Source: Patescibacteria group bacterium (GTDB lineage: Bacteria > Patescibacteriota > Microgenomatia > UBA10105 > UBA927). From it: a DNA stretch of 64,000 bases. Location of the stretch: contig DATKGN010000013.1 in NCBI GenBank assembly GCA_035510735.1, positions 192,596 through 256,595 of the forward strand, given 5' to 3'. Under the pieces are notes generated by a model. The model saw only the letters and a list, made by a program, of their open reading frames with translations. It did not search any database and had not been told where the DNA came from. Positions 5,164 to 27,265 of the stretch are shown here, piece by piece (within the stretch, counting starts at the first letter, position 1; each line of letters opens with the position of its first letter). Made by a program: the position numbers and the translations under genes.

Positions 5164-5829
5164 TTAGTGCCAGTCGATGGGGGTCATACCATTCTTTACA
5201 AGGTATGCGTTACACCGTGAAAAGTGATGGTTTCCGTAAAAATATGTCACGGAATACGGAGACGGGTGAGCAGAAGTTAACACTAAGTTTTTTTCCCTAT
5301 CAATGACTACTCCTTTATTCTGTGCATACCGTCCCCACAACATGTAAACCACGTGTTCACGGTTAGCGTTCAGTGTTTGGATAGTGGCATCGGTAAATGC
5401 TTCCCATCCAATGCCTGCGTGTGACGCCGGGCTTCCCGCCAAAACAGTAAGTACGCTGTTGAGCATGAGAACTCCCTGACCGGCCCAACGGGAAAGATCG
5501 CCGGAGGGAAGGGGCGTAATCTTCAAATCATTTTGAATTTCTTTATAGATATTTTGAAGTGACGGAGGAAGATCGATTCCCTTATTCACAGAAAAAGATA
5601 ACCCGTTTGCCTGATTTTTTCCATGATAGGGGTCCTGCCCGATGATGACCACTTTCACTTTATCAAGGGGCGTGAGATCAAATGCGCGGAAAATATTTCC
5701 GGGAGCTGGATAAACGGTTGTTTTTGTATATTGTTTCTTGACGGCCGTTGTTAATGATTTCCAATACGGTTTATCAAATTCAATCGCGAGTGCCTTTTTC
5801 CATGTGGGATGAATCTTTACGTCGGTCAT
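5164..5829 (-). CDS. ung: uracil-DNA glycosylase (family 1)
   Basis: Water-activating loop VVIIGQDPYHG, GLSFSV, and C-terminal HPSPYSV (HPSPLS-like) motifs. Confidence 0.85.
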   Translation of the reverse strand: MTDVKIHPTWKKALAIEFDKPYWKSLTTAVKKQYTKTTVYPAPGNIFRAFDLTPLDKVKVVIIGQDPYHGKNQANGLSFSVNKGIDLPPSLQNIYKEIQNDLKITPLPSGDLSRWAGQGVLMLNSVLTVLAGSPASHAGIGWEAFTDATIQTLNANREHVVYMLWGRYAQNKGVVIDREKNLVLTSAHPSPYSVTYFYGNHHFSRCNAYLVKNGMTPIDWH

Positions 5830-8616: not shown

Positions 8617-8700
8617 ATTGACAGTACTATAAATATTGTAGTACTATAATTTATGTAGCAGTATATTACTACAGAAACGATTATAAAGTAAAGGCGTTTC
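8617..8700. promoter_or_regulatory. divergent promoter/operator region with palindromes GTACTATAAATATTGTAGTAC and TGTAGcagtatattaCTACA
   Basis: TTGACA-N17-TAGTACTATAAT promoter-like element at 8618-8650, and inverted repeats between the HxlR gene and the quinone reductase gene. Confidence 0.35.
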
Positions 8701-8770
8701 TGAGTATAGACCCATCTAATCACATTTTTCGTCGAGGCGACTCCAAATCTGAGTAAGATGGGATCTATAT
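8700..8770. repeat. inverted-repeat element (TGAGTATAGACCCAtCTA ... TGAGTAAGaTGGGATCTA), copy 1
   Basis: Arms tagacccatcta / agatgggatcta pair. A second copy at 25195-25300 has arms tagacccacct / aggtgggatcta, a compensatory C-to-T and G-to-A change, with an internal hairpin gtcgaggcgac. It lies in the 5' UTR of the reductase gene. Confidence 0.5.
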
Positions 8771-11570: not shown

Positions 11571-11695
11571 GAAAGCCTATAAATTGCAACACGACTGTAC
11601 TCATAACGCATTGATACGTCTTCTTGGAAATATACGGAATCTTCCGAAGGACCTATCACATCTTTTGCTCGGTAAAATGTATAATAATCTTCTCT

Positions 11696-12865
11696 ATGCA
11701 ACACCTCTCGCCGGATCAGGAATTGTGTCTCCGACATATTCTGGAATGGTATAAGAAAGATAAACTCGCCATGCAGTATGTCACCCTCGGTGGATACGCA
11801 GGCACCGGGAAAACGACGCTCATTGCGTTCTTACGGAAAGAGCTCAACAGGATTGATAAAAAACTGAAGGTGGGGTTTGCAAGCTACACCGGGAAAGCCG
11901 CGCGGGTGTTGCAAAGCAAATTAAAAGAGGAGAAGGCGGTCTTAAAACATGACACGGTCGGCACCATCCATTCGCTCATCTATACGCCGATCGTCAATGC
12001 ACGCGAGGAGATTGTCGGATGGAAGCAGAAGGAAAAAATTGAGTGTGATCTCATCATCATCGACGAGGCATCGATGGTTGATAGCATCATCTGGGAGCAT
12101 CTCCTCTCCTACCTAAAACCCATTGTGGTTGTCGGCGATCACGGACAACTGCCGCCGGTCAAAGGCAACTTCAACCTCATGGAGAAACCCGACGTGACAC
12201 TTGTTGAGATCCACCGGCAGGCGAAGCACAATCCCATTATTGAGGTATCCATCCAGGCACGCGTGGCGGGAGAAATACGTGTCGGCCGCTATTCGGACAC
12301 GGTAATTAAATTTGACAGAAATGAAAGTGAAACGGGAGAACGGATGACGGAACTGCTCAACAGCTATACGAGCGATACGCTTATTTTGTGCGGGTACAAT
12401 ACGACGCGGAAACGGCTCAATGCATACATCAGAAGCTCTCTTGGTTTTGAGTCCCCTACTCCCGTAAGCGGCGACCGCGTCATCTGTTTGCGGAACAATC
12501 ATAAAGCGAAAATTTATAACGGGATGCTGGGAACCATCCTCCGGATCGAACGGAAAAATGACCAGTGGTACACGGCAGATATCGCCATGGACGGCTCAGA
12601 ATTGAACTATTCCGGCCAGATTTCCGTCGCGCAATTTAATGCAGATACAGCACTTAACTTCACCGAGAACCGGCGCCTCATCATGGGCGGCGATTTATTT
12701 GATTTCGGCTATGCACTCACGGTGCATAAAGCGCAGGGCAGCCAAGCCAAGCGAGTGGTCCTATTTGAAGAGCGGTTCAAGAAAATGGACGATGACCAGT
12801 GGCGGAGGTGGCTCTATACGGCGGTGACGCGGGCCGAAGAAGAGCTCTACATTTTCCCGTCATAG
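11696..12865 (+). CDS. SF1 DNA helicase, RecD/Dda-like (AAA_30 + UvrD_C_2)
   Basis: Walker A GGYAGTGKTT, DEASMV (motif II), VGDHGQLPPV (motif III), and C-terminal LTVHKAQGSQA...YTAVTRAEEEL. The start was moved to the ATG at 11696 (MQHLSPDQEL). Confidence 0.8.
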   Translation: MQHLSPDQELCLRHILEWYKKDKLAMQYVTLGGYAGTGKTTLIAFLRKELNRIDKKLKVGFASYTGKAARVLQSKLKEEKAVLKHDTVGTIHSLIYTPIVNAREEIVGWKQKEKIECDLIIIDEASMVDSIIWEHLLSYLKPIVVVGDHGQLPPVKGNFNLMEKPDVTLVEIHRQAKHNPIIEVSIQARVAGEIRVGRYSDTVIKFDRNESETGERMTELLNSYTSDTLILCGYNTTRKRLNAYIRSSLGFESPTPVSGDRVICLRNNHKAKIYNGMLGTILRIERKNDQWYTADIAMDGSELNYSGQISVAQFNADTALNFTENRRLIMGGDLFDFGYALTVHKAQGSQAKRVVLFEERFKKMDDDQWRRWLYTAVTRAEEELYIFPS

Positions 12866-18027: not shown

Positions 18028-18546
18028 ATGCAAAGCATTAATCAGACGCAAGCTGCTATTGCTAAATATCAAGTTGCAATAAATAAAAATATCTCTGAAA
18101 GTGAAATTCTTTGGAACCGATACAACGCTCTATTAGTTTTTAATTCAATACTCATAACGGCGATAGGATTTTCATATCAGGGGAACTTAAACCTACCATT
18201 ACTTGTGGTTGCCAGCTTGCCAATCGCGGGGCTTCTGTCGTGCTATTTGTGGTTTATCGTCACACTTCGCGGTTTTCAGTGGATAAAATTCTGGACAGTT
18301 ACAGCTAGAAAGATCGAAGAAAAATATCTACCTGATGATAATCCTATTTTAAATCCGATAAATAATGGCAAAAATCATAGGGAGGATGTTGTTGGGTGGC
18401 CTAAAACTCAAATAGCATCTTATATATTAATTTTGGTAACAGCTATTTTGTATCTTATTTTTTTAGCCAATCTACTGAATACAAAATCGTTTCACAAAAA
18501 TATTTTTCATTCACAACAACGAACAATGCACCGGTATATTAAATAG
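18028..18546 (+). CDS. hypothetical membrane protein (3 TM)
   Basis: 172-aa AT-rich ORF with hydrophobic helices. Confidence 0.4.
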   Translation: MQSINQTQAAIAKYQVAINKNISESEILWNRYNALLVFNSILITAIGFSYQGNLNLPLLVVASLPIAGLLSCYLWFIVTLRGFQWIKFWTVTARKIEEKYLPDDNPILNPINNGKNHREDVVGWPKTQIASYILILVTAILYLIFLANLLNTKSFHKNIFHSQQRTMHRYIK

Positions 18547-18584
18547 TGTTACTTTTTGTTAGACCCTCTAGGTAGGTTTCTACT

Positions 18585-18625
18585 TCACACCCTTCGTAAT
18601 CGCTCCTCCGTGGGATCAAAGTACA
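18585..18625 (-). repeat. decayed copy A of ABC-exporter 3' terminus (most degenerate)
   Basis: Minus-sense ...cccacggaggagcgattacgaagggtgtgaagtag aligns, with indels, to the real terminus ...ccgcggacacgctatcgttgaggaagcagagtaa. Confidence 0.45.
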
Positions 18626-18722
18626 AGAGAAATTAAAGCTTTAGCTTGTCGCGAATGGTATAATTGCGCTGAAGTAATAATTGAACTGCGACTCTATATC
18701 GGTCTCTAATTTACTATATTAC

Positions 18723-19604
18723 ATGAAAAAGGCACAGGTTTTTATAAGCTGTGGACAAAAAGATGATAGCGAAAAAGTCTTTGGAGAATATTTAGAAAAA
18801 TACTTCGTGGCTCGTGGTTTTGACACATATTTCGCTGAAGAAGTTCATAGCTCCAAGCCCCTATTACTGAGCATATTCGACGCTCTTAAAGAAAGTGAAT
18901 ATTTTGTTAGCGTTAACCCTCATAGAAAAGAAACGGGCGATACAGGTTCAATATTCGTTCAGCAAGAAATTGCGGTCGCTTCTTCATTAAGAATGCCTAT
19001 TATTGCATTTCATCAAAAGGGAGTACGAAGAACAAATGGTATGTCTGGGGGCCTCCATCTTAATAGCATTGAGGTTAATGAACCGAGAGAAATGAAGCAT
19101 CTGTTGGGCAAGGTCACTGCTTTGTGGGATAACACATCTAGAAATCAGCTTTTCCTGAAGATAGCTAATCCAAGTCTAAATATTCTAAATCAAAACAGTC
19201 AACTTACAAATTGGTGGCATATCTCTTGTCGGAATGGATCAAGTCTTAAACACGCAAAAGGATGTATGGCTTATATAGATAAAATTTTTGGTGCAAATAG
19301 AAAAAATATAATAACTATACCTTATAAATGTGAAATAGTGTGGGCTGGAGTAGGAATACATAGCATAACAATTGCTAAAAAAACTGAGAGGGATTTTGAC
19401 GCCATATTTACATTCAACGGATCAGGCGTATGGCACCCACAAATATTACAAACATCAACTATATACAAATATCCTTCATTAACAGATGGCATATATAATA
19501 TTGAATATTTAGTTGTAAGTGATAATTTTCCCGACGCGAGATTATTAGTTAAATTGAAGCTTCAAAAAGATATTATGACAGTCATAAAACAAAGACAATT
19601 ATAG
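18723..19604 (+). CDS. TIR-like (TIR_2/DUF1863-type) domain protein with unknown C-terminal domain
   Basis: N-terminus VFISCGQKDDSEKVFGEYLEKYF...EYFVSVNPHRKETGDTGSIFVQQEIAVASSLRMPIIAF follows the TIR_2 pattern (vFISY..D ... S.W...E). The roughly 170-aa C-terminal half is beta-rich and unassigned. Confidence 0.5.
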   Translation: MKKAQVFISCGQKDDSEKVFGEYLEKYFVARGFDTYFAEEVHSSKPLLLSIFDALKESEYFVSVNPHRKETGDTGSIFVQQEIAVASSLRMPIIAFHQKGVRRTNGMSGGLHLNSIEVNEPREMKHLLGKVTALWDNTSRNQLFLKIANPSLNILNQNSQLTNWWHISCRNGSSLKHAKGCMAYIDKIFGANRKNIITIPYKCEIVWAGVGIHSITIAKKTERDFDAIFTFNGSGVWHPQILQTSTIYKYPSLTDGIYNIEYLVVSDNFPDARLLVKLKLQKDIMTVIKQRQL

Positions 19605-19619
19605 TCGAATGATATAACT

Positions 19620-20456
19620 ATGAAGAGAAAACTTATCGACGTTCCTATTCAGTATGAGAGCATTATAAAAACTGCCTTTATTACAAGAACAAAATCTATA
19701 AATGACTTTAAGGAACGTGATTTTAAACGTTTAATTAAAGCTGTGCGGGATAGTGGCATTAAGAATAGATATGTCCTATCAGATATTGATAAGGATAATT
19801 ATCTAGTTCCTGACACTGATTTAACCGTGACTGTCATTAAAGATAAAAACCCTACAAGCGCAATTTCGCTAAATAAGGCTCTTCAGAGGATAAGAGAAGA
19901 TGATGTTAATCCGAAAGCATTTTTGATTTCCTCGCAAGAGGTGATCTTAACGGATGATCATATTAATAGACTCATTAAAGTGTTAAACGACGACCCTACT
20001 CTTCTTGTAGCTGGGTATAAATTTACCATTAAGGATGAAGAATTAAATAGTGAGTTGCAGTGGTATTATGCAAGGAAAAAATTGATAGCGTTTAAGGTGC
20101 CCTGGAATACCTGCGCCCTCTGGAATTACAAGTTATTCGATAAGTACGTGGAAGAGTTTGATGAAATCACGACTAAAAACCCTTTTAACCCAGTGTGTGT
20201 TTGTATTGATAACGTCTGCAGTCAAACAGAACACGTGGGAATGGAGGATGGGCTTGCTATTGCAAAGGCATTGACTCAAAATGAACGTCTAAAATACAAG
20301 TTAATAAGTGCGGACCCACCACTCTGTTGGAAAGTCAATGTTGATAGAATAAATGAACATAGGAAAAAACTTGCCAGAAAAGATACAGTAATGCGAGATT
20401 TTATGGAGGTTAAAAAATATTCTATCGATAAGTCACGAAATGCTAGGATGGAGTAG
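19620..20456 (+). CDS. hypothetical protein, possibly GT-A-fold glycosyltransferase-like
   Basis: C-terminal VPWNTCALWNYKLFDKYVEEFDE...GMEDGLAIAKAL resembles the GT2 acceptor/ED motif region; weak. Confidence 0.35.
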   Translation: MKRKLIDVPIQYESIIKTAFITRTKSINDFKERDFKRLIKAVRDSGIKNRYVLSDIDKDNYLVPDTDLTVTVIKDKNPTSAISLNKALQRIREDDVNPKAFLISSQEVILTDDHINRLIKVLNDDPTLLVAGYKFTIKDEELNSELQWYYARKKLIAFKVPWNTCALWNYKLFDKYVEEFDEITTKNPFNPVCVCIDNVCSQTEHVGMEDGLAIAKALTQNERLKYKLISADPPLCWKVNVDRINEHRKKLARKDTVMRDFMEVKKYSIDKSRNARME

Positions 20457-20550
20457 ACCTGTCCTGGAGTACCGAATTGATAGGTTCCTACTCAATATCC
20501 TCCGTAATCGCCCTTCCGCGGAATTGGGAAATATACAAATCGGACGGAAA
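20457..20550 (-). repeat. decayed copy B of ABC-exporter 3' terminus plus conserved downstream segment
   Basis: Minus-sense gatttgtatatttcccaattccgcggaagggcgattacggaggatattgagtag reads DLYISQFRGRAITEDIE*, versus DLYNSQFRGHAIVEEAE* in the real gene. It starts 15 nt after the stop of CDS 20555..21265. Confidence 0.7.
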
Positions 20551-21299: not shown

Positions 21300-21395
21300 C
21301 AATTTCATCCTGACAGATGTACGAATTATTGTTTACAATTCCATAACCGCCCGGCCGCGGAATTGGGAATTGGAGAGGTCGGCGTATTTCATAAA
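21300..21395 (-). repeat. decayed copy C of ABC-exporter 3' terminus plus conserved downstream segment
   Basis: Minus-sense reads FMKYADLSNSQFRGRAVMEL*, followed by ACAATAATTCGTACATCTGTCAGGATGAAATTGGA. Copy E has the related GGAATAATAATTGTACATCCGAGGGACGGAATTGGA. Confidence 0.7.
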
Positions 21396-21451: not shown

Positions 21452-22723
21452 TTAAGAATCGAAGGAAGACAAAAAAGCATTTAACTTTTCCGATAATGCT
21501 TTCCAAAGTGGTTTGATTACAAACTTTGCTTCCTCATCAATTTCCGAACTGAATTGCGATGTTGCAATGGCGTACCTTTTTTCAAGTTCAGTTTTCATAT
21601 AACGCAAACTATTTTGTGCCTGAGGAGATACAGATTCCGGAAGTAATCCCAATGCGGTAAGGGCGTAGAAAAAAGTCAAAGCATCTCTTCTTAACGAAGG
21701 TAATACTACTGTTTCAAGTGATTCGCCTGAATGCGTATCTTTACGATCAATTTCCACGGCAGGCATGACTACATCCTCAGATCCGTTTAAAATTTTTTCT
21801 GCAACAGACTCCGACAAATAGTTTAGAGCATCTCGATACGTTGGTATTTCCTGAACCCTGTCTGTTGGATCAAGTTTTTTTAACCCATAACCATATGGAT
21901 TATTTTTTGTAGCCATATCCATATATATTGAATATAGGCCATCCGGAGTTGTAAGAACACCGTCATAACAGGCAACAGTCATTGAATCTCTGCTTATTAC
22001 CTGTCTTTCTGGGTGTCGAATAAATTTACCCAATTTTTTTATTGTTTCTTCGTTCACTTCTTTGGCAACCCTAAATTGTCCCTCAATATACTTTGCATCT
22101 AAACCCAACGTGTAGAGTTGTCTTTTGATTGAATAAACTGTTTCTTTATTTGAATCGGTTATAGAAAATCTTACGGTATGAAGCGAGGTGTCGTTATATA
22201 AAGTTATATCACGCTTCGAAACGTCCTGAAGATGCTGAAGAAGTTTAACAACTATTGCTTCAGTTCCTTTCGGAACAGTAGTGGATGTATATATTTTTTG
22301 TTCACGCCGTAAATGCGGAATTAATGCGGAAACCACATCATCGTAATCATATGAAGTCCCGTCTTGTCTGTTGCCGCTTATATCAAACGGGTCAGACGCC
22401 CAATAGAGTGCGACCCGTTCAGGCAGATACTTCGCGTATTTTGTAGCAAATTGAGTGAATGACTCAAAATCAAAACCTGATGTAATTTTACGTTTAACAT
22501 CAAAACTACACCATGGGCAACCTCCAGTACAACCATCTGTAAATTGTAGATGCTGCATACCTTTTAATAGGGATTGTCTGACCGGTTCGGGGAAGGCCTC
22601 AAACATTTGGAGAATGTCAACAGGATCTCTGTTCCTCCTCATCTCTATGAGAGAATATATTCTGTCTGTTATTGGGAAATTGTTTGATTGGGGTGTTAGA
22701 TCTGATTGTCGTGATTCCGGCAT
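21452..22723 (-). CDS. putative radical SAM protein (atypical; CTGGCPWC = Cx3Cx2C)
   Basis: 423 aa with the single cluster QFTDGCTGGCPWCSFD at residues about 60-75. No SPASM or second cluster. C-terminal 150 aa is helical. Confidence 0.45.
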   Translation of the reverse strand: MPESRQSDLTPQSNNFPITDRIYSLIEMRRNRDPVDILQMFEAFPEPVRQSLLKGMQHLQFTDGCTGGCPWCSFDVKRKITSGFDFESFTQFATKYAKYLPERVALYWASDPFDISGNRQDGTSYDYDDVVSALIPHLRREQKIYTSTTVPKGTEAIVVKLLQHLQDVSKRDITLYNDTSLHTVRFSITDSNKETVYSIKRQLYTLGLDAKYIEGQFRVAKEVNEETIKKLGKFIRHPERQVISRDSMTVACYDGVLTTPDGLYSIYMDMATKNNPYGYGLKKLDPTDRVQEIPTYRDALNYLSESVAEKILNGSEDVVMPAVEIDRKDTHSGESLETVVLPSLRRDALTFFYALTALGLLPESVSPQAQNSLRYMKTELEKRYAIATSQFSSEIDEEAKFVIKPLWKALSEKLNAFLSSFDS

Positions 22724-22794: not shown

Positions 22795-22850
22795 TCTGTT
22801 CCGAACTCTCCGTAATCGCTCTCCCCCGAAACTGGCTGTTATAAGGGTGG
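22795..22850 (-). repeat. decayed copy D of ABC-exporter 3' terminus
   Basis: Minus-sense reads HPYNSQFRGRAITESSEQ; about 60 nt upstream of the radical SAM start. Confidence 0.65.
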
Positions 22851-22930
22851 GCGTGTTCAGATGAGCCTATAGTTGACTTTTGAAAACTACTTCCTATAAT
22901 TGAGAATAACTTGTTTCTATTTTAGATTGT

Positions 22931-24089: not shown

Positions 24090-24172
24090 AATGTTCCAAT
24101 TCCGTCCCTCGGATGTACAATTATTATTCCTTATCCTAAGTAACCGCCCCCGCGGAGAACTTCTGTTCTCAC
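24090..24172 (-). repeat. decayed copy E of ABC-exporter 3' terminus plus conserved downstream segment
   Basis: Minus-sense cagaagttctccgcgggggcggttacttag reads QKFSAGAVT*, followed by an AATAATTGTACATCCG...GGACGGAATTGGA block shared with copy C. Confidence 0.55.
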
Positions 24173-25123: not shown

Positions 25124-25185
25124 TCAAAGTCGCGGCCCTCCGCAGAACTGAGAATTAGAGGTCGGCGTATACCACAAAAACTCAT
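25124..25185 (-). repeat. decayed copy F of ABC-exporter 3' terminus
   Basis: Minus-sense reads FLWYTPTSNSQFCGGPRL*, versus real GFYADLYNSQFRGHAIVEEAE*. It lies 120 nt downstream of the real stop. Confidence 0.6.
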
Positions 25186-25194
25186 TTCGTAACT

Positions 25195-25300
25195 AAGTTT
25201 TTGAGTATAGACCCACCTAATCAAATTTTTCGTCCGAGGGACTTGTCCCGCACGAAGCCTGGGATCTAGCGACAAATTTGAGTAAGGTGGGATCTAAAAT
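25195..25300. repeat. inverted-repeat element, copy 2 (see 8700-8770), abutting the ABC-exporter stop codon
   Basis: ttgagtatagacccacctaatcaa ... ttgagtaaggtgggatctaaaatcc, with internal hairpins gtccgagggac and ttgtcccgcacgaagcctgggatctagcgacaa. Confidence 0.5.
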
Positions 25301-25303
25301 CCT

Positions 25304-27265
25304 TTACTCTGCTTCCTCAACGATAGCGTGTCCGCGGAATTGGGAGTTATACAAATCAGCATAGAAGCCTTTTTGGGCAAGGAGCCTTTTATGTGTCCCC
25401 TTCTCTATAATTGCCCCGTGATTCATGACGAGGATGAGATCGGCGTCGCGGATGGTTGAGAGCCGGTGGGCGATGACAAAACTCGTCCTACCCTTCATAA
25501 GCTTCCCCATGGCTTCCTGAATAAGAAGTTCAGTCCGGGTATCGACGCTGCTCGTTGCTTCATCAAGGATAAGGATCTCGGGATCAGCCAGGAACGCACG
25601 GGCGATAGTGAGAAGTTGTTTCTGGCCTTGGGAAATGTTCGTGGCGTCCTCGTTTAACACCATCTTGTAGCCCTCAGGAAGCGTCCGTATAAAGTGGTCG
25701 GCGTAGGCCTCTTTTGAAGCCAATACGATTTCTTCCTCCGTTGCATCTTCGCGGCCGTAAGCGATATTATCCCGGAGCGTCCCATGGAAAAGCCAGGTAT
25801 CCTGTAAGACCATACCGAACATTCGGCGAAGATCGGCGCGTTTGAGTTTTGTGATATCAACGCCGTCAACCAAAATTTTTCCGCCGTTCACTTCGTAGAA
25901 ACGCATGAGTAAATTAACGAGGGTCGTCTTGCCGGCTCCGGTCGGTCCCACAATGGCGATCATATGACCCGGTTTTACATCAATATTCATATCTTCAATG
26001 AGGATCTTATCTTTGCTGTATCCGAATTTGACGTGCTCGAATTTGACGGCACCCTTTGGTTCTTTGATAACCTCAGGTTTGGCTATTTCCTTGACCTGTT
26101 CTTCCTCATCCAAAAGCTCAAAAACCCGCTCGGCGGAGGCGATTGCGGACTGGATGACGTTTGCGATATTGGCAAGCATGGTGATGGGCTGGGAAAATGA
26201 AGAAGAATACTGGATAAATGCCTGCACGTCACCGATTGAAATGGCGCCCTGTGTGGCCATGATGCCACCGACGACTGCGACGAGGACGTAGCCAACGTTA
26301 CCGACAAACCGCATGAGCGGCATGATGATACCGGAAACAAATTGCGCCTGCCATCCGGCTTCATAAAGGCTGTTATTGAACACATCAAACTGGGCGATCG
26401 CTTTGTGTTCATGCCCGAACGCTTTGACGATCTTGTGCCCCGAATACATTTCTTCGACGTGACCGTTTAAGTCACCGAGTGACCGTTGCTGTTTCCGGAA
26501 GAAATCCTGTGAGCGTTTCGCAATACCGGTCACGACAAATATGCTAAGAGGAAGTGTTGCAAGCACGATGAGTGTTAGCTGCCAGCTAATTGAGAGCATC
26601 ATGATAAGAACACCGATGAGAGATACGACGGAGGTAATAAGCTGCGTCACGCTCTGCTGGAGCGTCGAGCCGATGTTATCCATATCGTTAACCGCGCGGC
26701 TTAAAATTTCTCCGTGCGTACGCCCGTCGAAGTATTTGAGCGGCAATCGCGAGAGTTTTTCATCCACCTCTCGGCGCAATTTGTAGATCGTACGCTGCGC
26801 AACACCTGCCATCAGGAATTGCTGGATGAAAATAAAAACAGAGCTTATGACATAGAGTCCGAGCAAAATAAGAAGAACCCTTCCGATATAGCCGAATTCG
26901 ATGCCGGGAACGGGCGCCAGATGGAGAGGAAGTGTGGGGTTCGCAAGCAATTGCTTTTGGACGACGGAATTTTTTACCTGCACGATGAAACTCGCAAGCA
27001 AATCATTGAAAAGCTTGGTGGTCGCGAGTCCCAATATTTTCGGGCCCACAATGTTAAATATCGTACCCATGATGGCTGAGATAACGACGATCGAAAGGAG
27101 AGTTTTTTCCGGTCGGAAATATCCTAACAGTCTCTTGAGTGTCCCCCCGAAATCTTTTGCCTTCTCGACCGGCCTGCCCATAGCACCCCAGCCGCCCCGA
27201 TTCATGGGGTTCGCATGCACTTCATCACGCGGTTTATTTTTTAGTTTGGTTGCGTCATCACTCAT
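25304..27265 (-). CDS. ABC exporter, fused permease/ATP-binding subunit (MdlB/MsbA-like)
   Basis: 653 aa: 6-TM domain then an NBD with Walker A GPTGAGKTT, LSGGQ-like ISQGQKQLLTIARA, and Walker B ILILDEATS. Confidence 0.9.
   Translation of the reverse strand: MSDDATKLKNKPRDEVHANPMNRGGWGAMGRPVEKAKDFGGTLKRLLGYFRPEKTLLSIVVISAIMGTIFNIVGPKILGLATTKLFNDLLASFIVQVKNSVVQKQLLANPTLPLHLAPVPGIEFGYIGRVLLILLGLYVISSVFIFIQQFLMAGVAQRTIYKLRREVDEKLSRLPLKYFDGRTHGEILSRAVNDMDNIGSTLQQSVTQLITSVVSLIGVLIMMLSISWQLTLIVLATLPLSIFVVTGIAKRSQDFFRKQQRSLGDLNGHVEEMYSGHKIVKAFGHEHKAIAQFDVFNNSLYEAGWQAQFVSGIIMPLMRFVGNVGYVLVAVVGGIMATQGAISIGDVQAFIQYSSSFSQPITMLANIANVIQSAIASAERVFELLDEEEQVKEIAKPEVIKEPKGAVKFEHVKFGYSKDKILIEDMNIDVKPGHMIAIVGPTGAGKTTLVNLLMRFYEVNGGKILVDGVDITKLKRADLRRMFGMVLQDTWLFHGTLRDNIAYGREDATEEEIVLASKEAYADHFIRTLPEGYKMVLNEDATNISQGQKQLLTIARAFLADPEILILDEATSSVDTRTELLIQEAMGKLMKGRTSFVIAHRLSTIRDADLILVMNHGAIIEKGTHKRLLAQKGFYADLYNSQFRGHAIVEEAE

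Follow-up and report, generated by a model that had tools for sequence, protein, structure and literature searches.

Two adjacent genes in a 64,000-nucleotide stretch of DNA (the window) raise the question whether a TIR-like protein and a protein resembling glycosyltransferases (GTs) make up a defence system, as proposed in a preliminary description of the sequence, or are unrelated neighbours. According to the source names met in the homologue search, the window stems from a metagenome-assembled genome (MAG) of the Patescibacteria group. The first open reading frame (ORF1, 18723..19604, plus strand) encodes from its ATG a standalone protein of 293 amino acids (aa), in which a TIR-like domain is followed by a beta-sandwich; the second (ORF2, 19620..20456, plus strand) encodes a soluble protein of 278 aa with a predicted GT-A (GT2-like) fold. 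With moderate confidence the two are regarded as independent accessory genes, ORF1 belonging most likely to a TIR-like family which cleaves NAD+ or nucleotides, ORF2 being a GT2-like protein that is an orphan at the sequence level.

The layout of the locus, in terms of coordinates, peptides and base composition, is as previously described. The ORFs lie on the same strand, are separated by 15 nt, and are both AT-rich (GC content 0.349 in ORF1 and 0.360 in ORF2, versus 0.442 in the window). The peptides VFISCGQKDD, EYFVSVNPHRKETGDTGSIFVQQEIAVASSLRMPIIAF, VPWNTCALWNYKLF, EEFDE and GMEDG were all found in the translations. A longer version of ORF1 starts with TTG at 18681, and the N-termini of family members agree with the ATG. 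The extended -10-like element TGGTATAAT, formerly placed at about 18657, was read directly at 18656..18664 (plus strand), 59 nt upstream of the ORF1 ATG; it has no -35 hexamer partner, and was therefore omitted by a promoter scan based on two hexamers. ORF1 and ORF2 are probably co-transcribed in this genome. Both have tens of end-to-end homologues and invariant motifs, which is above chance.

Distribution of the two genes

Loci carrying relatives of either gene were gathered from different sources: JGI metagenomes and look-ups of exact proteins provided 85 of the ORF1 family, GTDB genomes 19 of the ORF2 family, and contigs carrying the closest relatives were added. Profile hidden Markov models of both families were compared with the six-frame ORFs of the resulting 108 loci. 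ORF1 relatives were found at 86 loci, ORF2 relatives at 22, and the two together at none. Leaving aside the population from which the window derives, 86 ORF1-family and 21 ORF2-family loci remain, and 0/107 carry both genes. The pair is otherwise present only in six contigs from other samples, which are 100% identical and represent one population. The partner gene is missing also next to the closest relatives, which are 62% identical to ORF1 (locus L105) and 52–53% identical to ORF2 (L106 and L107). Locus L105 belongs to a related genome, its helicase and UDG being 76% and 78% identical, respectively, to those encoded in the window; here the ORF1 homologue is followed by an alpha/beta-hydrolase instead of a GT. 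The proposal that the TIR-like and GT-like proteins constitute a defence architecture is not borne out by these data, as the pair never co-localised outside this population, closest relatives and related genome included, an outcome which the preliminary description itself had named as refuting the idea.

No recurrent partner gene emerged for either family from all-versus-all clustering and Pfam summaries of the neighbours, which are heterogeneous. This heterogeneity also led to rejection of the idea that ORF2 belongs to gene clusters of the glycan or cell-wall type. A phage or plasmid origin was also discarded, as no relatives of either family were found in IMG/VR, INPHARED and PLSDB. PADLOC includes no system combining TIR and GT proteins. 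A systematic survey of TIR systems from 2025 mentions no TIR plus GT system, the word 'glycosyltransferase' being absent from it, and a full-text literature search combining TIR, glycosyltransferase, anti-phage and operon retrieved no such system by title.

ORF1 relatives reside in contexts of different types. In one locus (L006, 55% identity) the ORF1 relative, here called X, is part of a type I restriction-modification operon arranged as hsdM, hsdS, X, transmembrane protein, hsdR; at L006:3167-10564, X and a 200-aa protein with a single transmembrane segment are set between hsdS and hsdR, and the gene boundaries are abutting or overlapping. In other loci the relative adjoins genes encoding a SIR2_2-like protein (L036 and L037), a NucS_C+EVE protein (L044) or an FRG protein (L053), or is found within an integrase/AAA_25/HTH island (L003). 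From some of these neighbourhoods, we infer that ORF1 most likely functions as a single-protein conflict or abortive-infection enzyme. In five distinct lineages an ORF1-family gene is located between leuC and leuD-leuB, LeuC proteins being 66–76% and ORF1-type proteins 55–72% identical. The loci of this clade are L054, L056, L060, L074, L076 and L077 (as an example, L060:784-3497), and an Iso_dh gene follows. This is an unexpectedly stable location, of the housekeeping type, for a TIR-like gene.

The ORF1 family

When searched alone, ORF1 gave nothing usable in Pfam, NCBIfam, PADLOC and PDB sequences. A word-indexed search identified 51 clusters of full-length homologues, and an exhaustive profile search 1,516 representatives (clusters at 50% identity) at E<=1e-3, 432 of which at E<=1e-30. 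A two-domain layout of about 300 aa is constant in the best 150 of the 1,516 representatives. Ten diverse representatives proved to be unnamed metagenomic proteins in a cluster look-up, and all the relatives found derive from metagenomes or MAGs. Pfam, NCBIfam and PADLOC have no entry covering the members examined, two of which give faint ThsB matches in PADLOC. Two alignments, of 43 members and of 144 diverse members, were used throughout, and the 187 sequences were scanned against all Pfam. The AlphaFold2 model built on the family alignment has a pLDDT of 90.5 and a pTM of 0.82. Residues Phe7, Tyr60, Gln81, Glu82 and Asn171 are invariant across the 144 diverse members.

The N-terminal domain (residues 1-135, 18723..19127, plus strand) is modelled as a flavodoxin-like (beta-alpha)5 unit, with strands at residues 5-10, 34-37, 60-65 and 93-97, and helices at 15-30, 49-57, 77-88 and 121-131. 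It has the five-strand alpha/beta fold of TIR_2, which is also the fold of enzymes similar to nucleoside 2-deoxyribosyltransferases (NDTs). The preliminary description had assigned the domain to the TIR_2/DUF1863 pattern. In favour of the assignment, sub-threshold TIR_2 matches were obtained with 23/43 members at E<=1 and with 18/144 at E<=0.01 (41/187 together), and TIR_2, DUF4062 and TIR are the sole Pfam families recurring in the scan. The matches always begin at the first strand, residues 6-64 being aligned to profile positions 1-57. The assignment does not hold at the level of the Pfam gathering score, which is reached by no member, and ORF1 itself has no TIR_2 match at E<=1. Pfam models of deoxyribosyltransferases matched none of the 187 members.

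Alignment of the domain profile to the TIR domain of human SARM1 by hhalign (E=3e-4, probability 40%, 112 columns) places VFISCGQ on VFISYRR, Phe78 on Trp638, and Glu82 on the catalytic Glu642; sequence and residue numbering of SARM1 were checked against PDB. The conserved Glu formerly noticed at the position used by TIR NADases corresponds to Glu82 (codon 18966..18968, plus strand; motif GS-x-F-x-Q-Q-E), which is the predicted catalytic residue and is invariant in both the 43 and the 144 members. The profile did not align with provisional sequences of MyD88, RPS4 and L6, and gave short stretches only with those, likewise provisional, of the Lactobacillus leichmannii NDT (E=0.47) and human DNPH1 (E=0.058). 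PDB profile searches with either alignment found nothing significant, and no TIR structure. The whole chain retrieved by Foldseek from PDB mainly unrelated two-domain proteins (TM scores 0.25–0.34), such as GH3 glucosidases, NAD kinase and aIF2-gamma, and with these matches, which include SPARTA TIR-APAZ chains among the top ones, the N-terminal domain is not classifiable.

The fold is common to TIR NADases and N-(deoxy)ribosyltransferases, which have the catalytic Glu in an equivalent helix. Glu82 is invariant, and its position is common to both groups of enzymes; ORF1 is therefore predicted to act on N-glycosidic bonds, whichever the family. Like TIR domains (TIR_2, PF13676, and the STIR clan, which includes DUF4062), ORF1 features a first strand of the VFIS type and the (beta-alpha)5 topology and, as TIR domains of the SARM1 type, an invariant Glu in the helix that follows strand 3 and, four residues before it, an aromatic side chain. 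It differs from TIR_2 because its matches fall below the gathering score and are confined to the first half of the model, and from TIR domains in general because it is fused to a family-specific beta-sandwich and has no adjacent effector, NLR, SAVED, STING or pAgo partner. With the superfamily of NDT, DNPH1 and CMP hydrolases (Nuc_deoxyrib_tr, PF05014) it shares the flavodoxin-like fold and the position of the catalytic-Glu helix. It differs from these enzymes in lacking a sequence-profile signal, and because S-x-F-x-Q-Q-E-x-A replaces the glycine-rich D/S-x-G-x-x-x-E-x-G; an additional beta-sandwich is not known as a feature of the superfamily. Like ThsB of the Thoeris system and standalone bacterial TIR proteins, members of the ORF1 family are small, have an extra non-TIR portion, and reside sometimes in defence neighbourhoods. 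Unlike in Thoeris, ORF1 relatives are not flanked by a ThsA-type gene or by any other effector gene that recurs. Standalone TIR proteins were explicitly left aside in the 2025 survey. The domain is quite likely TIR-like, without being a demonstrated member of TIR_2, and from sequence and model is best labelled a predicted N-glycosidase domain of TIR/N-ribosyltransferase-like type.

The C-terminal domain (residues ~140-293, 19140..19601, plus strand) is an all-beta unit, a beta-sandwich without family assignment. The preliminary description was right in viewing this region as beta-rich, as nine strands are modelled over residues 143-292, and overestimated its length, which is about 155 and not 170 aa. 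Pfam signals are faint, and involve only Ig-like or beta-sandwich families (Y_Y_Y, CR4_N, ICAM D2). Residues Cys181, Glu204, Trp207, Gly209, Arg223 and Asp226 are near-invariant in the 144 members.

The ORF2 family

Searches with ORF2 alone in Pfam, NCBIfam, PADLOC and PDB sequences gave nothing usable, and 65 homologue clusters were found. The GT-A-like character suggested earlier for this protein is upheld at the level of the fold. The AlphaFold2 model has a pLDDT of 95.3, and the best 50 PDB structures retrieved by Foldseek are all GT-A glycosyltransferases, mostly GT2, with probability 1.00 and TM scores of 0.5–0.6. Matches include PcManGT (6yv7, TM score 0.61), BcsA, hyaluronan and chitin synthases, RmlT, SpsA, GtrB and DPMS. 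No real match to a Pfam GT family was found in the family, Glyco_transf_21 and Glycos_transf_1 occurring once each among 51 members; 6/51 have faint matches to the MobA-like NTP_transf_3. A PDB profile search with the family alignment gave nothing significant. From the model, ORF2 is confidently viewed as a protein with a GT-A (GT2-like) fold and as an orphan in terms of sequence.

Invariant residues in the family are Arg23, Asn85, Ser105, Gly132, Pro161, Asn163, Thr164, Trp168 and Phe180 and, in the C-terminal part, Gly207-Leu212 (GMEDGL), Lys250, Arg253 and Lys254. In common with GT2 enzymes (PcManGT 6yv7, SpsA 1qg8, GtrB, DPMS), ORF2 has the GT-A fold and carries the FDE ... G-x-ED-x-L block typical of their C-terminal half, found here as VPWNTCALWNYKLF ... 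EEFDE ... GMEDGL (20097..20255, plus strand). It differs from them in having an invariant T-R after strand 1, a conserved basic C-terminal helix (HRxKLARK), and no membrane segments; a hydrophobic segment is absent, the highest Kyte-Doolittle value of a 19-mer being 0.62. GT-A enzymes have a DxD motif after strand 4. In ORF2 the strand made by residues 100-104 (beta4) is followed instead by Ser105-Gln-Glu107 (19932..19940, plus strand), Ser105 being invariant and Glu107 conserved in at least 90% of the family. By the secondary-structure register of the model, S105-x-E107 would be equivalent to the DxD position. Two diverged paralogues of the family reside on different contigs (L094 and L099) of one Saccharibacteria MAG (CAYPQL01).

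The ABC-transporter 3' end and the origin of the pair

An ABC-transporter gene on the minus strand (25304-27265) encodes a protein ending in YNSQFRGHAIVEEAE. Its last ~15 codons and stop (25303-25361) are the unit of a repeat, the copies of which are diverged and similarly oriented. Strong copies (nhmmer E<=1e-12) are found on the minus strand at 22795-22853, 21327-21385 and 20488-20544, weaker ones at 25130-25167, 18579-18615 and possibly 24125-24156. Copies delimit segments of one to three genes, and decay with distance from the ABC gene. Between copy A (18579..18615, minus strand) and copy B (20488..20544, minus strand) the segment is filled by ORF1 and ORF2, which are thus bounded by ABC-terminus copies as first reported; copy B is strong (E=2e-14; repeat families D1 and D3) and encodes a peptide ending in DLYISQFRGRAITEDIE, copy A is degenerate (E=0.03 within the window). 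Genes seem to have accumulated here by one insertion after another at the ABC gene's 3' end; such an accretion hot spot would explain why unrelated accessory genes lie next to each other.

Other features of the region are reported here for completeness. Direct repeats of ~80 nt, made by a 47-nt core (85% identical) and a second block of 28 nt, are located at 8696-8770 and 25197-25300. They bracket 16.5 kb just downstream of the ABC gene, and may be the ends of a composite island. By Pfam, this interval includes ADH, FMN reductase, RecD-like helicase, permease and methyltransferase genes. A 423-aa ORF (21452-22723, minus strand) fills its own inter-repeat segment, and features a CTGGCPWC (CxxxCxxC) motif and a faint Radical_SAM match only (E=0.08, residues 60-79). 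RecD-like helicase and UDG genes are adjacent in the related genome (L105:2990-4818). In the window, an interval of 5.8 kb, comprising the left copy of the ~80-nt repeat, lies between their equivalents (5164-5829 and 11624-12865), which suggests that the window carries insertions relative to the L105 layout. Two independent assemblies of the same population (L111 and L112) begin at window positions 18600 and 18619, inside copy A, and two others (L113 and L114) both begin at 19521, inside ORF1; these breaks may reflect strain-level variation at cassette boundaries. No Rfam families were found in the 8-30 kb interval, and no tRNA in the window.

The inter-repeat segment preceding that of ORF1 and ORF2 is occupied by a gene (18028..18546, plus strand) encoding a 172-aa protein with two transmembrane segments, assigned to the 8xMP (octameric membrane protein) family (PF24838, E=8.9e-14). 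A literature search on 8xMP/PF24838 retrieved nothing relevant.

In the reading that we regard as moderately probable, that of two independent genes, both would have been acquired horizontally, and would have landed by chance in one AT-rich segment of the insertion hot spot downstream of the ABC gene. A foreign origin is suggested by the GC content (0.35–0.36 versus 0.44), as by the location between ABC-terminus copies. The ORF1 N-terminal domain would cleave an N-glycosidic bond in NAD+ or a nucleotide via Glu82, and the tightly packed beta-sandwich may serve as a regulatory, ligand-sensing or oligomerisation module. ORF2 would be a member of a separate soluble GT2-like family with no conserved partner. 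Several observations weigh against this reading. Many of the loci surveyed are short: at least 1 kb of flanking DNA is available downstream in 49/86 and upstream in 53/86 of the other ORF1-family loci, and upstream in 18/21, downstream in 18/21 and at both sides in 15 of the other ORF2-family loci, so that the co-localisation test had full power in about half only. The close spacing of the two genes, their common strand, similar GC content and shared inter-repeat segment are the same in the six contigs of the population, as could be expected from a lineage-specific functional link. The leuC-leuD placement, kept across about 30% protein divergence, resembles stable inheritance more than a defence island, and PADLOC yields just the two faint ThsB matches. 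The best TIR_2 score in the ORF1 family is 23.9 bits (E=6.5e-5), below the gathering score of 28. In the BFVD library of viral structures, Foldseek matches of whole ORF1 to phage NDTs and CMP hydrolases (E 2.6e-5 to 6e-4) rank above those to TIR proteins (E 2e-3 to 2e-2).

The last point bears on a rather unlikely explanation, according to which ORF1 is a non-immune nucleotide or nucleoside N-glycosidase or transferase, similar to deoxyribosyltransferases and involved in salvage or metabolism, and ORF2 an unrelated envelope glycosyltransferase. The best single-domain BFVD matches are indeed NDTs (target-normalised TM score 0.61–0.63) and hydrolases of the CMP hydroxymethylase type, and the S-x5-E spacing fits the NDT/DNPH1 motif as well. 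The synteny with leuC and leuD in one clade and the lack of a conserved effector partner are consistent with a metabolic role, and nucleotide salvage matters in auxotrophic Patescibacteria. Whole ORF1, taken as query, has the same query-normalised TM scores with NDT-like and TIR proteins (0.31–0.35). Against this explanation, TIR_2 matches were obtained with 41 of the 187 members and deoxyribosyltransferase matches with 0; SARM1 TIR aligns over 112 columns, and the profile alignment with L. leichmannii NDT and DNPH1 fails; the aromatic residue four positions before the Glu agrees with TIR (Trp638), not with NDT; and the gene has a low GC content, a patchy distribution and, in some loci, a restriction-modification or integrase context. 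Placement in a non-TIR flavodoxin-like family, which the preliminary description had named as one outcome refuting it, is partly sustained, no member reaching the TIR_2 gathering score and BFVD E values favouring NDT, which Pfam profiles do not.

That ORF1 and ORF2 form a lineage-specific immune module, with sensing or signalling left to the TIR-like protein and its GT-like partner serving as effector or modifier, for instance by glycosylating a TIR product or a phage target, is very improbable. The 15-nt gap and the other shared features suggest joint arrival, and other samples of this population show the same arrangement. The absence of the pair from all of the 107 other loci, nearest relatives and related genome included, the heterogeneous contexts in which each family resides by itself, and the lack of a TIR plus GT system in PADLOC, the 2025 survey and the titles retrieved from the literature all argue against it. 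An even fainter chance is given to a version in which the A-B segment is the mobile unit of an integron-like, integrase-less cassette array built up by successive insertions at the 3' end of the ABC gene, the two genes being mobilised jointly and their products acting together as a lineage-specific immune module; if so, the GT might modify a TIR-derived nucleotide or a phage component. Integron gene cassettes feature an attC-like hairpin and a nearby integrase, and neither was found: hairpins in the ABC-terminus copies were rejected, as folding is no better than that of shuffled sequences (z -0.5 to +0.1), and none of 19 of the larger ORFs between 8.7 and 25.3 kb scanned against Pfam is an integrase. 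Least credible of all is that 8xMP is the true partner of ORF1, in a Thoeris-like combination of TIR signal producer and membrane effector with ORF2 as a bystander. The 8xMP gene is co-directional, 176 nt upstream of ORF1 and equally AT-rich (GC 0.343), and transmembrane proteins are among the putative effectors of the Thoeris-type TIR systems newly catalogued in the 2025 survey. The two genes are kept apart by ABC-terminus copy A, which is degenerate, and by a promoter-like element, and no 8xMP homologue was found near ORF1 relatives at 86 loci. As recurrent partners, 8xMP and small membrane proteins in general were rejected, since small transmembrane neighbours (33/129, 26%) are mutually unrelated; by a rough estimate, 26% is about the background fraction of membrane proteins.

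A TIR plus GT defence architecture being unsupported, the locus provides no new type of system to catalogue. The ORF2 family adds a GT2-like enzyme which is a sequence orphan and in which S-x-E replaces DxD. The lasting value lies in the ORF1 family, which is large and unannotated, and combines a TIR/N-ribosyltransferase-like domain with a conserved beta-sandwich. If ORF1 were metabolic, it would be an unrecognised nucleotide-processing enzyme in organisms depending on salvage. If it were a single-protein immune sensor with NADase or nucleotidase activity, TIR-type immunity would reach into Patescibacteria and other uncultivated lineages, and would gain a new sensor module.

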